Origin: an uncultured bacterium
Lineage (GTDB): Bacteria; Zixibacteria; MSB-5A5; JAABVY01; JAHJOQ01
Assembly (NCBI GenBank): GCA_965369655.1
Contig: CBDUQR010000024.1
Span: forward strand, 1-43,884
Direction: 5' to 3'
Length of the DNA stretch: 43,884 nucleotides
Part shown: piece by piece, positions 24,303 through 42,232 of the stretch
How the letters are laid out: each line of letters opens with the position of its first letter
Numbering within the stretch: the first letter of the stretch is position 1
The notes under the pieces: generated by a model
Databases searched by the model: none
What the model was told of the DNA's origin: nothing
What the model saw: only the letters and a program-made list of their open reading frames with translations
Translations under genes and position numbers: made by a program

Positions 24303-24935
24303 CTATCTGCTCTTCCTGATCTTGACGAACGTATGATTCTTCCCTGGAACTGCGCCACGAACACAGATCAGGTTGTTCTCCGTATCGATCTTAGCCACGA
24401 GGAGATTCTTGACAGTTATTCTGTCGCCGCCCATTCGTCCCGACATCCTCGTGCCTTTGAAAACACGCGATGGATACGAACTTTGCCCGATAGATCCGGG
24501 CGCCCTCCAGCGATCAGACTGACCGTGAGACTTGGGACCGCCTTTGAAACCGTGACGCCTGACAGTGCCCATGAAACCGAGTCCCTTCGAGACGCCGCTC
24601 ACATCGACGCGTTCACCCTCATGAAACACATCGACCTTGAATTCGCCGCCGACCTCGATATCGTCGACACTCTCCATACAGACTTCGCGAAGAAAGCGCG
24701 TCGGCTTTACATCGTTATTCTTGAAATGCCCGGTCATCGGCATATTGACCAATGTCTCGCGGATTCCCTCGAATCCGAGTTGGACGGCATTGTACCCGTC
24801 TTTCTCCTCGCTCTTGACCTGAACCACAGAGCAGGGTCCCGCCTGAATCACGGTAACCGGCAATGCAGAACCGTCTTCGAGGAAGATACGGGTCATGCCA
24901 ATCTTTCTGCCAAACAGCGTATTCATCGAACTCAT
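24303..24935 (-). CDS. rplC: 50S ribosomal protein L3
   Basis: GRKIGMT, DGYNAVQ, RAPGSIG, GRMGG; alternative start 24926. Confidence 0.98.
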
Positions 24936-25243
24936 ACCTTGATCTCAACATCCACACCAGCCGGAAGGTCCAGCTTCATCAGAGCATCGACCGTCTGAGG
25001 AGTCGACTCACAGATGTCGATCAGTCTCTTGTGAATTCTTGTTTCAAACTGCTCCCGAGACTTCTTGTCGACATGCGGCGACCGAAGCACCGTATAGACC
25101 GTTCGCTTTGTCGGCAGCGGTATCGGACCGACAAGCTTGGCGCCGGTACGCAGCACAGTGCGAGCTATCTCCTTGGTCGACTTGTCAAGGGAATGGTGAT
25201 CGTATGCCTTGAGACGAATCCTGATTTTCTGACTAGCGGCCAT
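24932..25243 (-). CDS. rpsJ: 30S ribosomal protein S10
   Basis: [30 protein letters not shown]. Confidence 0.98.
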
Positions 25244-25247
25244 ATCG

Positions 25248-26453
25248 TTACTCCAGAATTTCCGTTACGACGCCGGCGCCGACTGTGCGACCACCCTCAC
25301 GGATGGCGAAACGAAGCTCCTTCTCTATCGCAACCTCAGTGTGAAGCTCTACTTCCATCTGGATGTTGTCGCCTGGCATAACCATCTCGACATTCTCAGG
25401 AAGCTTGATCGAACCGGTTACATCCGTCGTACGTAAATAAAACTGTGGACGATAACCATTGAAGAACGGCGTGTGACGACCACCCTCCTCTTTCTTCAAC
25501 ACATAAACCTCGCCCATAAACTTCTTGTGGGGCTTGATGCTCCCTATCTTCGCGACCACCTGACCACGCTCGATCTCATCCTTGTCTACGCCGCGAAGAA
25601 GCAAACCTACATTGTCGCCAGCCTCACCGCTGTCAAGAATCTTACGGAACATCTCGACGCCTGTCACAACAGTCTTGCGAGTCGCCTTGAATCCCACGAT
25701 CTCCACCTCTGTGCCTGTCGTGATTGCGCCACGCTCGATTCGACCCGTAGCTACCGTACCACGACCCGTGATCGAAAAAACATCCTCGACAGGCATCAGG
25801 AACGGCTTGTCGGTCTCACGCTCAGGAGTCGGGATGTAATTGTCGCAAGCATCCATCAACTCATAAACACACTTGAACGAAGGATCATCCTTGATGTCAG
25901 GATCTGCCGCTTTAGTCATCGCCTCGAGCGCACTGCCGCGAATGATCGGAATGTCGTCGCCCGGAAAATCATACGCCGACAAAAGCTCGCGAACCTCAAG
26001 CTCTACCAAATCCAAAAGCTCTGGATCATCAACCTGATCGACTTTGTTCATGAATACTATCATATACGGTACGCCCACCTGACGAGCAAGAAGAATGTGC
26101 TCGCGGGTCTGAGGCATCGGACCATCCGCGGCTGATACCACAAGTATTGCGCCGTCCATCTGAGCCGCGCCCGTGATCATGTTCTTGATATAATCCGCGT
26201 GACCCGGACAATCTACATGAGCATAGTGACGATTCTTTGTCTCGTACTCAACATGAGCCGTCGCGATCGTGATACCGCGCTCGCGTTCTTCGGGGGCATT
26301 GTCAATCGAATCAAATGTACGTATCTCACTCAAACCGTCGCGAGACAATATCATCGTCATTGCCGCTGTCAACGTAGTCTTGCCATGGTCAACGTGACCG
26401 ATAGTTCCTACGTTAACATGTGGCTTCGTCCTCTTATACTTTTCCTTCGCCAT
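25248..26453 (-). CDS. tuf: Elongation factor Tu (str-operon copy)
   Basis: [23 protein letters not shown]; start moved to ATG 26453 after GGAGG. Confidence 0.99.
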
Positions 26454-26494
26454 ATCCGACACATCCTCCAGAAAAAAGAATAACTCGTCTAATA

Positions 26495-26555: not shown

Positions 26556-28628
26556 CTAAGTCGCCACCTTCCAGTTCGTTTCGCTCCTCACTGCCTGATC
26601 GTAATGTGAGAATTCCATGGTGTAAACAGCGCGACCCTGAGAGAGCGATCGAACCCTCGTTGCATACCCGAACATCTCCGAGAGAGGTACTTCCGCGTGA
26701 ACGACCTGAGCATCGGATCGACGCTCGATTCCGGTGATCTTGCCTCTCCTCGACTTGAGGTCACCGATGATTTCGCCTACGCACTCATCCGACGCCACAA
26801 CTTCGACTTCCATAAACGGCTCGAGCAACTGTGGCTTCGCCTTCCTCGCGCCTTCCTGGAAAGCGTTTGATGCGGCAATCTTAAACGCCATCTCTGATGA
26901 ATCGGCGTCATCATACGATCCGCTCAGAAGCGTAGCAGCCACTCCGGTTGTCGGATAGCCTGCAAGCACGCCGAATTCCATGGCGTCCCGTACTCCGCTC
27001 TCGACTGCCGGCACGAACTCTGCCGGCACCTCCGACGGGCTGGCCTCGTTATTGAAGATAAAATGCGACTCACCCTCGGTCGGCTCGAATCGCATTACGA
27101 CATGTCCATAATGTCCTCTGCCACCGAGCTGTTTGATGAACTTTGCTTCAGCCTCACCAACGCCGGCGATGGTTTCCTTGTACGCTACCTGCGGTTTGCC
27201 GACATTCGCTTCGACAGAGAATTCGCGGGTCAGCCTGCCAACCAGTACCTCGAGGTGAAGTTCTCCCATTCCGGCGATCACTGTCTGACCGGTATCTTCA
27301 TCGATCTTCACCTGGAATGTAGGATCCTCATCTGAGAGTCGCGCAAGCGCAAGTGATAGCTTGTCCTGATCTGCTTTCGTCTTCGGCTCGATTGCGATCC
27401 AGATAACAGGCTCGGGAAATTTCATCTTTTCGAGCAGGATGGGATGCTTCAGGTCTGTAAGCGTACTTCCGGTTGTTGTGAAACGAAGCCCAACCGCGGC
27501 GACGATGTCGCCGGTTTGAGCAGCCTTCAAGTCTTCACACTTATTGGCATGCATAGCCAGTATCCGCCCGATTCGCTCTTTCTTTCCGGAAGCGACATCA
27601 AGCGCGGTGCTTCCGGCGGCAACAGTGCCGGAGTAGACGCGGAAATATGTCAGCTTGCCAACGTAAGGATCAGATATAATTTTGAACGCGAGCGCAGAGA
27701 AAAATTCATCGTTCGATGGCCGCCTCGATTCCTCGCGCTTCGTTTGAGGATTCACTCCGGTTATCGGAGGCAGTTCGTTGGGAGATGGCAAATAATCTGC
27801 GATAGCATCCATCAGAAACTGCACGCCCTTGTTCTTCAGTGCTGCGCCGCAAAACACCGGAACCAGCCTGCATTCGATCGTGCCTTTTCTTATCGCTCGA
27901 TTGAGTTCATCGACCGATACCTCCTCACCATCGAGAAACCTCTCGGCGAGTTCATCGTCGACGTCCGCAGCGGCCTCAAGAAGTTTCTCGCGGTACTCAT
28001 TTGCGAGCGGGAGGATATCCTCCGGAATCGGAATATCCTCGAATGTCTTGCCCATATCCTCTTCGCTGTAGACACGGCATGTCATGTTCAGAAGATTCAC
28101 GATTCCCTTGAATTCATCCGACTCGCCGTGAGGAATCGTCACGCAGACAGGATTCGCGCCGAGCTTCTCTTGAATCATGCGAACCGCGTTGAAAAACGAT
28201 GCGCCGATACGGTCAAGTTTATTAATGAAGGCAATCCGAGGTATCAGGTACTTGTCGGCCTGTTTCCATACTGTCTCGGTCTGAGGTTCGACGCCGCCAA
28301 CCGCACAGAATACTCCGATGGCGCCATCAAGTACACGCAGCGACCTCTCGACTTCCGCGGTGAAATCGACATGACCCGGTGTATCGATAATGTTGATCTG
28401 GATGTCTCGCCAGTAGCAGGTGGTGGCAGCCGAAGTGATCGTAATCCCGCGCTCTTTCTCCTGCTCCATCCAATCCATGGTCGCAGCGCCGTCGTCAACC
28501 TCTCCGATGCGATGTGTTCTGCCGGAGTAGTAGAGAATCCGCTCGGTAGTAGTCGTCTTACCGGCATCGATATGCGCCATTATGCCGATGTTTCGGACCT
28601 TACCTATTTTCGTCCTGCGAGTCATCAT
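26556..28628 (-). CDS. fusA: Elongation factor G family GTPase (divergent domain IV)
   Basis: [30 protein letters not shown]; str-operon position; start moved to ATG 28628 after GGAGAG. Confidence 0.96.
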
Positions 28629-28720: not shown

Positions 28721-29191
28721 TTACCACCTGAAGTGCGCGAAAGCCTTGTTTGCCTCCGCCATGCGGTGAGTATCTTCTCTCTTCTTGATCGAAGCGCCCT
28801 CGTTCTTTGCCGCCGCCATGAGTTCTCCTGCCAGCTTCTCGGCCATGGAGTGTTCGCTGCGCTTATGCGAATGCAGGATAAGCCATCTCACAGCAAGCGC
28901 GTTGCGGCGATTCGGACGAACCTCGACTGGAACCTGATATGTAGCGCCGCCGACTCGCCGAGATTTCACTTCGACTACCGGCTTTACGTTGGTTAGCGCC
29001 TTGTGGAAAATATCTACGCCTTTCTGGTTCGTCTTCTCTTCGATGATCTCAAGAGCGCCGTAGAAAAGCTTCTCAGCTGTAGACTTCTTCCCCTTCTTCA
29101 TCAGGTTGTTGAGGAAGTAGGTGACGGTGGTGTCGCCGTAAACGGAATCAGGCGGTCGTTCCCTCTTCTGTATTTTCTTTCTTCTTGACAT
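28721..29191 (-). CDS. rpsG: 30S ribosomal protein S7
   Basis: [33 protein letters not shown]. Confidence 0.98.
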
Positions 29192-29198
29192 ATACTAT

Positions 29199-29573
29199 CT
29201 ACTTTTTCGGTTTCTTGGTTCCGTACTTGGAACGACTCTGGTTGCGATCATCGACCCCCGAAGTATCCATCGTACCGCGAATAATGTGATAACGAACTCC
29301 GGGAAGATCCTTGATTCTGCCGCCTCTGATCATCACGATCGAGTGTTCCTGAAGGTTGTGGCCCTCACCCGGGATATAGGCGGTCACTTCAATGCCATTG
29401 GTCAGGCGAACACGTGCAACCTTGCGAAGGGCCGAATTCGGCTTCTTCGGCGTCGAAGTATACACGCGTGTGCAGACTCCACGCTTCTGAGGGCAGTTCT
29501 TCATTGCCGGCGTGTTTGTCTTCGTGATGACACGCTTGCGCCCGAATCGGATCAACTGATTAATAGTCGGCAA
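29199..29573 (-). CDS. rpsL: 30S ribosomal protein S12
   Basis: [28 protein letters not shown] start. Confidence 0.99.
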
Positions 29574-41026: not shown

Positions 41027-42232
41027 TTACTCCAGAATTTCCGTTACGACGCCGGCGCCGACTGTGCGACCACCCTCACGGATGGCGAAACGAAGCTCCT
41101 TCTCTATCGCAACCTCAGTGTGAAGCTCTACTTCCATCTGGATGTTGTCGCCTGGCATAACCATCTCGACATTCTCAGGAAGCTTGATCGAACCGGTTAC
41201 ATCCGTCGTACGTAAATAAAACTGTGGACGATAACCATTGAAGAACGGCGTGTGACGACCACCCTCCTCTTTCTTCAACACATAAACCTCGCCCATAAAC
41301 TTCTTGTGGGGCTTGATGCTCCCTATCTTCGCGACCACCTGACCACGCTCGATCTCATCCTTGTCTACGCCGCGAAGAAGCAAACCTACATTGTCGCCAG
41401 CCTCACCGCTGTCAAGAATCTTACGGAACATCTCGACGCCTGTCACAACAGTCTTGCGAGTCGCCTTGAATCCCACGATCTCCACCTCTGTGCCTGTCGT
41501 GATTGCGCCACGCTCGATTCGACCCGTAGCTACCGTACCACGACCCGTGATCGAAAAAACATCCTCGACAGGCATCAGGAACGGCTTGTCGGTCTCACGC
41601 TCAGGAGTCGGGATGTAATTGTCGCAAGCATCCATCAACTCATAAACACACTTGAACGAAGGATCATCCTTGATGTCAGGATCTGCCGCTTTAGTCATCG
41701 CCTCGAGCGCACTGCCGCGAATGATCGGAATGTCGTCGCCCGGAAAATCATACGCCGACAAAAGCTCGCGAACCTCAAGCTCTACCAAATCCAAAAGCTC
41801 TGGATCATCAACCTGATCGACTTTGTTCATGAATACTATCATATACGGTACGCCCACCTGACGAGCAAGAAGAATGTGCTCGCGGGTCTGAGGCATCGGA
41901 CCATCCGCGGCTGATACCACAAGTATTGCGCCGTCCATCTGAGCCGCGCCCGTGATCATGTTCTTGATATAATCCGCGTGACCCGGACAATCTACATGAG
42001 CATAGTGACGATTCTTTGTCTCGTACTCAACATGAGCCGTCGCGATCGTGATACCGCGCTCGCGTTCTTCGGGGGCATTGTCAATCGAATCAAATGTACG
42101 TATCTCACTCAAACCGTCGCGAGACAATATCATCGTCATCGCCGCAGTCAACGTCGTCTTGCCATGGTCGACGTGACCGATAGTACCTACGTTGACATGC
42201 GGCTTCGTCCTCTTAAACTTTTCCTTCGCCAT
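41027..42232 (-). CDS. tuf: Elongation factor Tu (tRNA-linked copy)
   Basis: Same protein as the 25248-26453 copy except F for Y at residue 6. Confidence 0.99.

Follow-up and report, generated by a model that had tools for sequence, protein, structure and literature searches.

The window analysed here is the contig CBDUQR010000024.1 (assembly GCA_965369655.1) of an uncultured Zixibacterium, taken at its full length of 43,884 nucleotides. Its str operon carries fusA, the gene for elongation factor G (EF-G), and this is a genuine, intact EFG I-type fusA of a marine-sediment Zixibacterium, the metagenome runs that contain the gene being from marine sediment. The closest database relatives of its product carry Zixibacteria names. 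The subject of this report is the tip of domain IV in the encoded protein, P0001, where the key change is H583D in loop II, accompanied by V585A. A first-pass annotation of the window had described this copy as an EF-G without the tip residues critical for translocation, specialised for recycling and complemented by a translocase paralogue elsewhere in the genome.

The altered tip of the str-operon EF-G

Residues are numbered as in the literature, after E. coli EF-G without Met1, by residue-by-residue alignment to PDB 2rdo_7. The start of P0001 was set at an ATG-ATG to match P0005, a relative of 690 amino acids. The gene and the altered positions are as follows.

26556..28628, minus strand: fusA, EFG I-type elongation factor G of 690 amino acids (P0001), from the open reading frame and its translation, stop codon counted in
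27099..27134, minus strand: domain IV loop I, from DNA codons and alignment; Q507 (27129-27131) and Gly-Gly kept
27126-27128, minus strand: S508L in loop I, from alignment to E. coli EF-G
27111-27113, minus strand: Q513H in loop I, codon CAT
26883..26921, minus strand: domain IV loop II, from DNA codons and alignment; D586-S587-S588 kept
26910-26912, minus strand: H583D in loop II, codon GAT
26904-26906, minus strand: V585A in loop II, codon GCC

The codons of Q513H, H583D and V585A each lie a single base from one for the usual residue. With H583D, and V585A too, the conserved tip set of EFG I (Q507, Gly-Gly, H583, D586 and S587) is incomplete in P0001; an intact tip is a conserved feature of EFG I and no criterion of the curated TIGR00484 model. 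The first-pass annotation had reported altered loop I and loop II motifs beside intact GTPase motifs, and both observations hold: the changes are present in the DNA where it had placed them, the G1-G4 motifs are complete in the translation (including RGITI, the switch II His and NKLD), and the frame is unbroken across 690 codons. It was mistaken about loop I, where the glutamine that is replaced is Q513, whereas Q507, the one studied for its function, is kept. Its description of an EF-G that lacks its tip residues, in the plural, is not apt either, since Q507, both loop I glycines and D586-S587-S588 remain.

P0001 scores 1009 bits against the EF-G equivalog TIGR00484, whose curated cut-off is 659.4. 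Among solved structures, the EF-Gs of E. coli and T. thermophilus are nearest (848 bits), well ahead of mitochondrial EF-G1 (569 bits) and of the recycling factor EF-G2mt (7l20_w, 512 bits). Position in the str operon (rpsL-rpsG-fus-tuf) is described as the context criterion for EFG I (Margus 2011; PMC3150367), and P0001 has S12, S7, EF-Tu and S10 as its NCBIfam-identified neighbours. Bit scores and operon context together make P0001 an EFG I-type protein.

29199..29573, minus strand: rpsL (S12), which opens the str operon (TIGR00981, 231 bits)
28721..29191, minus strand: rpsG (S7), directly upstream of fusA (TIGR01029, 219 bits)
25248..26462, minus strand: tuf (EF-Tu), directly downstream of fusA (TIGR00485, 733 bits)
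24932..25243, minus strand: rpsJ (S10), start of the S10 operon (TIGR01049, 153 bits)

The tuf gene is found twice in the window, at 25248-26462 and at 41027-42232, both on the minus strand. Only 8 mismatches in 1206 bases (99.3% DNA identity) separate them, a likeness that suggests gene conversion.

Rarity and recurrence of Asp583

A homologue search was made with words drawn from P0001 residues 470-620. Of P0001 and the 120 homologues listed (n=121), 119 have His at position 583; the other two, P0001 and P0005, have Asp. Val585 is kept in 119/121, Gln507 in 120/121 and Gln513 in 116/121. His583 is found throughout a canonical set of 125 sequences, where V585 and Q513 are each 96% conserved. 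Set against this conservation, the change in P0001 goes beyond chance variation.

P0005 comes from an independent source and is 96% identical to P0001 over 690 amino acids, with 27 differences. Its loop II, GSYDDSDSSEMAF (GSYDDSDSS), has the same H583D, which for that reason is not an assembly error, and its loop I reads KHLGG, so that Q507 is replaced by His. Position 585 is Ala or Ser in the two known members of the genus. Judging from this pair, the tRNA-contacting residues of the tip are no longer held in the genus, at 583 and 585 in both members and at 507 in the sister. Six of the 27 differences affect columns with a conservation of 93% or more; this is the top share among 163 close EF-G pairs, in a test with small numbers and pairs that are not independent. 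Domain IV contains four of the differences listed at conserved columns. When metagenomes were scanned with P0001, 80 loci were returned, none above 63% identity, and the P0005 contig was not among them.

In the same class, His583 is kept by 26 of 27 str-type orthologues. The exception is G006, whose str EF-G (L015, G006:C26:1-3714) has a far more degenerate tip, RHSGGKPQYGHV and ENATFDENDSTAMAY, and whose genome also holds the additional EFG I paralogue called 'b' below. G006 is a second, independent Zixibacterial case of a changed tip: in FastTree trees, Asp583 arose there separately from its origin in the present genome (G000) and P0005. Q513H recurs in 5/27 class relatives and is therefore not unusual in the lineage. 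The lineage is not fast-evolving in general, with private changes at 0/53 columns in S7, 1/77 in S12 and 3/272 in EF-Tu, similar to those of its family mates.

Beyond these relatives, 185,579 species genomes were searched with a degenerate DNA pattern for G-S-[YF]-[DE]-[DE]-x-D-S-S-[DE]-x-[AS]-[YF]. The search gave 48 loci, all encoding an EF-G with Asp at 583; wherever the reading frame extends as far as the G motifs, these are intact. All but three are flanked by rpsL/rpsG and/or tuf/rpsJ (45/48), and those three are too short to judge. The pattern is narrow, which makes 48 a lower bound; G006 and the window itself are not counted in it. The loci belong to Desulfofustis, Desulfocapsaceae, Desulfobulbaceae and other metagenome-assembled genomes (MAGs) of deltaproteobacteria, to KSB1, Eisenbacteria, Anaerolineae and Bacteriovoracaceae, to several Gammaproteobacteria (among them a K189A-clade genome and a Methylophagaceae chromosome) and to Sulfidibacter corallicola M133. 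Independent origins of Asp583 in these other phyla are suggested by the differing partner proteins and differing loop sequences. Many of the Asp583 copies have lost parts of loop I as well, with TGAG, AAGK or SAGK in place of xGGx and T, M, E or L in place of Q507.

When 14 Asp583 lineages are compared with the 125 canonical sequences, the columns changed most often are 583 (14/14), 585 (12), those of P0001 residues 596 and 532 (10 each) and 569 (9). P0001 itself is changed at 583, 585, 532 and 569, and P0005 at 596 in addition; residues 532 and 569 are already altered in family mates whose His583 is in place. In family f1 as a whole, the conserved 'GGxIP' stretch of domain IV has lost its Gly-Gly (P0001 residues 528-536, window positions ~27030-27045; mates P0006-P0013). 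The stretch reads SPSEVP in P0001 and SVDQIP, RPDQVP or KPQEVP in relatives, and its column is altered in 10/14 of the Asp583 lineages.

Partner EF-G genes in this genome and in others

The assembly, G000, is a MAG of 100 contigs and 99.54% completeness. It contains two genes with an EFG_IV domain, the str-operon fusA and an EFG II-type gene on contig C7.

G000:C7:1288-3372 (outside the window): P0002, EFG II-type paralogue of 694 amino acids, 35% identical to P0001

P0002 reads GHNSSGKTTL in its P-loop, RRISIS in place of RGITI, and RYKKQSGG at loop I. It therefore combines the absence of RGITI with Gly and Leu at the two ends of the P-loop and a basic patch before the loop I Gln, which are the signatures given for EFG II (Margus 2011; PMC3150367), and it reaches 874 bits against NF009381 (cut-off 583). 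Its tip is intact, with KKQSGGRGQFGEV and GKTHPVDSS. The paralogue survey suggested by the first-pass annotation has thus turned up another tip-intact gene of the EF-G family, although of EFG II type and not the spdEFG1 or translocase paralogue that had been proposed. Codon adaptation is 0.638 for the str copy and 0.637 for the EFG II-type copy (82nd and 81st percentile of 1233 crude open reading frames), so that the latter is not visibly the more expressed of the two. The gene for the ribosome recycling factor (RRF) is also present in this genome.

A third kind of copy is found in relatives. This is 'b', a further EFG I-type gene present in 9/30 genomes of the class: G001, which belongs to the same genus, G003, G004, G006, G007, G009, G010, G011 and G026. 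It is 48-52% identical to P0001 and scores 982 bits with TIGR00484 and 811 bits with T. thermophilus EF-G. Its tip is canonical, its motifs include DTPGHIDF, KKQxGGKGQ[FY]AHI and AFR[IT]C, and the gene is located outside the str operon.

L046:4605-6671 (G001): 'b'
L043:1941-4034 (G003): 'b'

In FastTree trees, which were built without named spdEFG2, E. coli or Borrelia references, 'b' forms its own slowly evolving clade on a long stem, apart from the str copies; the clade also takes in sequences that bear the labels Marinimicrobia, FCB group and Acidobacteriota. An assignment of 'b' to spdEFG1 was considered and rejected, given the 811 bits to T. thermophilus EF-G as opposed to 573 to mitochondrial EF-G1.

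We also looked for 'b' in the reads. Logan contigs from four runs (X1, the probable source, and X2-X4) were compared with L046, the 'b' locus of the same-genus G001, at a likeness of at least 80%, and no long 'b' contig was found among them, a result that does not prove absence. On the 'b' gene X1 gave only short pieces of 186-372 nucleotides, at depth 2-7 and 81-91% likeness; a 36-kb contig at depth 24.6, probably the window's own, matched just 90 nucleotides of L046. In G001, 'b' is flanked by genes for a solute-binding protein, ChrB and a DUF1080-like protein, and none of these flanking genes has a homologue in the present genome at E 1e-10. Synteny is for this reason unable to show whether 'b' was lost, fell into a gap of the assembly or sits on a contig that was binned wrongly, and the G001 copy may itself belong to a variable region or to another bin.

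A second, tip-intact EF-G-family gene accompanies the Asp583 copy in all 35 of the other Asp583 genomes searched; the 13 remaining loci of the 48 were left aside as short, truncated or nearly identical to loci already searched. In 30/35 there is a paralogue that is not of EFG II type, and both His583 and Q507 are seen in 29 of these 30, the copy of G037 ending at a contig edge before the tip. In the other 5/35 (G041, G049, G055, G059 and G064) the second copy is of EFG II type only, again with His583. Three of these five have close relatives with a partner, and they may be incomplete. A non-EFG II partner is not obligatory, however, since G049 and G055 do without one. The present genome resembles these five, and its same-genus relative G001 has a second EFG I with a normal tip. 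For the frequency of multiple EF-G genes as such, Palmer et al. (2013; PMC3832671) give 'up to 30%', and in the gamma-type class of G050 at least two EFG_IV genes are present in 26/80 sampled genomes (25/79 without G102).

At least three kinds of partner can be told apart: one like mitochondrial EF-G1, a gamma-type second EF-G, and one related to the Zixibacterial 'b'. The L219 partner scores 838 bits with mitochondrial EF-G1 and 683 with T. thermophilus EF-G, and the Anaerolineae partner looks in the tree like a local duplicate. Desulfocapsaceae-type genomes (L133, L219/L220 and relatives, from the deltaproteobacterial MAGs G031-G061) have three EF-G-family genes. Their str copy is EFG I-like, with Asp583 and a loop I that is shortened and poor in Gly; another copy resembles mitochondrial EF-G1 and has its tip intact; the third is an EFG II. 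The complete genome of Sulfidibacter corallicola M133 (L139) likewise has a str EF-G with Asp583, whose loop I is YERQQGGKRVFARV, next to a mitochondrial-EF-G1-like copy and an EFG II. As a named strain, it could serve as a laboratory model. For comparison, spdEFG1 is described as paired with spdEFG2 where EFG I is absent (Margus 2011; PMC3150367).

A proposed division of labour, rival explanations and known systems

What has been observed is that the substitutions exist, are rare, recur and go together with a tip-intact paralogue. The reading drawn from this is a division of labour, which we tentatively put at a probability of about 0.48 and which is slightly favoured over the view that the changes are a tolerated variant. 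The str EF-G would share its jobs with another EF-G-family protein, and its tip would not be under the constraint expected of a translocase. Fast, frame-accurate translocation, which depends on the tip, would be carried at least partly by the other protein, and the str copy would keep the jobs that need a GTPase but not the tip side chains, above all RRF-dependent splitting of the ribosome. Deletion of loop I and most single loop mutations are indeed reported to leave RRF-dependent splitting and recycling intact (Zhang 2015; PMC4666400). The division of labour is favoured because Asp583 persists almost only alongside another tip-intact EF-G-family protein. Who the partner would be is less certain than the sharing itself. 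The EFG II-type protein of contig C7 is a doubtful candidate, though the better one; it is less likely still that the partner is a second EFG I, 'b', present in the organism and missing from the MAG. The stronger proposal that P0002 is the housekeeping translocase and the str EFG I mainly a GTP-driven ribosome splitter seems rather unlikely. The first-pass annotation, which had a recycling-specialised copy with a translocase paralogue elsewhere, is therefore upheld in that Asp583 recurs in company with a tip-intact second EF-G, and not in the identities it gave: the str copy is EFG I-type, and the only other copy is an EFG II without the catalytic His.

Several observations weigh against a division of labour. 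In this genome the tip is only mildly altered, with Q507, Gly-Gly and D586-S588 kept, whereas many of the partnered Asp583 copies are also without Gly-Gly. One loop 1 Gly is substituted in spdEFG2 and mtEFG2, a glycine loss to which the inability of EF-G2mt and Borrelia EF-G2 to translocate has been ascribed (Koripella 2021; PMC8203779), and P0001, with LGGRG, keeps both glycines. In E. coli, H583A has a small effect on translocation (Peng 2019; PMC6924986). Two related groundwater deltaproteobacterial MAGs, G049 and G055, combine Asp583 and an intact loop I with no other copy than an EFG II. In the 99.54%-complete assembly, neither a protein search nor tblastn with the extra copies of three relatives found a third EF-G, and no second EFG I or spdEFG1-like gene was found. 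P0002 itself has the switch II sequence DLPGFPDL, with Phe at the position of the catalytic His, and has private changes in 13 columns that do not vary among the nine other Zixibacterial EFG II compared, as against 1, 1 and 5 in family mates; one of these changes gives GKTHP in place of the family's GSSHS next to the loop II His. Changes of this sort would not be expected of a newly essential translocase. Outside the tip, P0001 is under the constraint usual in its family, with 6/238 private changes to the 5 of each family mate, and its stem branch in the FastTree tree has an ordinary length (0.21). Its domain IV deviations, 8/55, are typical of the class (range 3-15) when counted against a canonical set that is biased, having been chosen by likeness to the domain IV of P0001, and across the class their number has no clear link with the presence of 'b'.

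Many of these points are shared by the closest rival, which we regard as plausible at somewhat less than even odds. The str EF-G would still be the sole housekeeping EF-G, active in both translocation and recycling, with H583D, V585A and Q513H as a tolerated or compensated variant of the lineage; the changes may be left over from a time when 'b' was present, 'b' having later been lost, and the EFG II would be accessory. EFG I membership, the str-operon position, the intact G motifs, the retained part of the tip, the ordinary branch length and count of private changes, and equal codon adaptation all fit with this, as do the failure to find another EFG I in a 99.5%-complete MAG and the same set-up in G049 and G055. 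E. coli H583A, H583R and H583K moreover still translocate, some of them just ~2-fold slower (PMC7749637; PMC6924986). Yet a tolerated variant should hardly be so rare (2/121 nearest homologues, 48 pattern matches in 185,579 species) or be found with a non-EFG II, tip-intact paralogue in 30/35 genomes. Although a one-base reversion is possible, Asp has been kept in both known members, the sister P0005 has gained Q507H, which is dominant-lethal and frameshift-prone in E. coli, and the share of P0001/P0005 changes at conserved columns is elevated. It is improbable that the tip has instead adapted to some other task, such as lineage-specific tRNAs, the decoding centre, bridge B2a or programmed frameshifting, with no duty lost. 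Both EF-G-family genes are privately changed beside the loop II His, to YDDAD in the str copy and GKTHP in the EFG II, the neighbouring translation genes are without such changes, and the same few columns change repeatedly across the Asp583 lineages; the recurrent link with a tip-intact paralogue is nevertheless explained more simply by relaxed constraint. As for an error of assembly or sequencing, or a pseudogene in decay, the 100 contigs of the MAG invite the question, but the idea can practically be dismissed: the open frame of 690 codons has all its motifs and normal constraint outside the tip, P0005 has the same H583D from another source, and two further metagenome runs contain 85% and 83% of the words sampled from fusA.

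Sub-functionalised EF-G pairs are already known. What seems to be new is that a str-operon EFG I has repeatedly lost His583 across phyla, with differing kinds of partner, and that some genomes, this one included, pair an Asp583 EFG I only with an EFG II that lacks the catalytic His. No paper describing these two patterns was found in our literature search, and the supplements of Margus 2011 and Atkinson 2015, with their per-genome EF-G types and str positions, may list some of the deltaproteobacterial cases. The tip of the str EFG I appears to have been lost in at least 14 lineages, almost always with a tip-intact paralogue of a different kind. For that reason, str-operon fusA cannot safely be called 'the' translocase when genomes of these groups are annotated. 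The side chains of His583 and Gln507 are held to keep the reading frame, and replacements fixed in nature test how indispensable they are. Genomes in which EFG II is the only partner make it testable whether an EFG II can be the primary translocase. If it is, routine elongation would run on an EF-G probably unable to hydrolyse GTP in the usual way, and the same pairing, of a GTPase without the tip and a tip without the GTPase, would occur in G049 and G055.

The EFG II subfamily to which P0002 is likened includes T. thermophilus EF-G-2 and Bacteroides EF-G2, and P0002 shares with it the lack of RGITI, the first Gly and last Leu of the P-loop and the Lys-Lys patch. It remains below the NCBIfam cut-off for the Bacteroides EF-G2 family (657 vs 1000). 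Bacteroides EF-G2 reportedly translocates without GTP hydrolysis.

The tip positions in question have been studied in E. coli. Q507 and H583 have been shown there to contact the tRNA and to maintain the reading frame (Peng 2019, PMC6924986; Niblett 2021, PMC7749637). Substitutions at the tip make translocation slower, and Q507H and H583R, both of them dominant-lethal, lead to more -1 frameshifting (Niblett 2021; PMC7749637). The mutants Q507H/D and H583A/K/R affect the same two positions as here, and the Q507H of P0005 is itself one of the laboratory mutants; those, however, were made in the laboratory and are toxic or dominant-lethal, whereas the changes described here are fixed in nature. 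H583D is absent from the main text of Peng 2019 and is not named where Niblett 2021 and Zhang 2015 present their loop mutants.

In Pseudomonas aeruginosa, translocation appears to fall to EF-G1B, encoded outside the str operon, and recycling to the str-operon EF-G1A (Palmer et al., 2013; PMC3832671), a precedent for a str-operon copy as the recycling factor. Both are EFG I-type, and the str copy is a poor translocase that apparently works with RRF, a pattern to which 30/35 Asp583 genomes and the Zixibacterial relatives with 'b' may be compared. The present assembly differs in having no second canonical-tip EFG I outside the str operon, and the account of EF-G1A and EF-G1B in Palmer et al. (2013) is of moderate domain IV differences, without mention there of a lost tip His.

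The first-pass annotation had looked instead to the spd-type pairs of EF-G1 and EF-G2, and this likeness does not hold. Such pairs stand in for EFG I, but in the present genome it is EFG I that has the altered tip; a spdEFG1/mtEFG1-type partner in an EFG I-free genome is not what is seen, as only the str copy and the EFG II are present. An identification of the str copy as spdEFG2 was also rejected, EF-G2mt (512 bits) being far more distant from P0001 than the EF-G of E. coli or of T. thermophilus (848 bits); the deltaproteobacterial str copy is likewise EFG I-like (842 bits to T. thermophilus EF-G vs 518 to EF-G2mt). Borrelia burgdorferi EF-G2 and human EF-G2mt nonetheless resemble P0001 in joining an intact GTPase centre to an altered domain IV tip (Margus 2011, PMC3150367; Atkinson 2015, PMC4342817; Koripella 2021, PMC8203779), and the idea common to all of them is that the tip serves translocation and not splitting.

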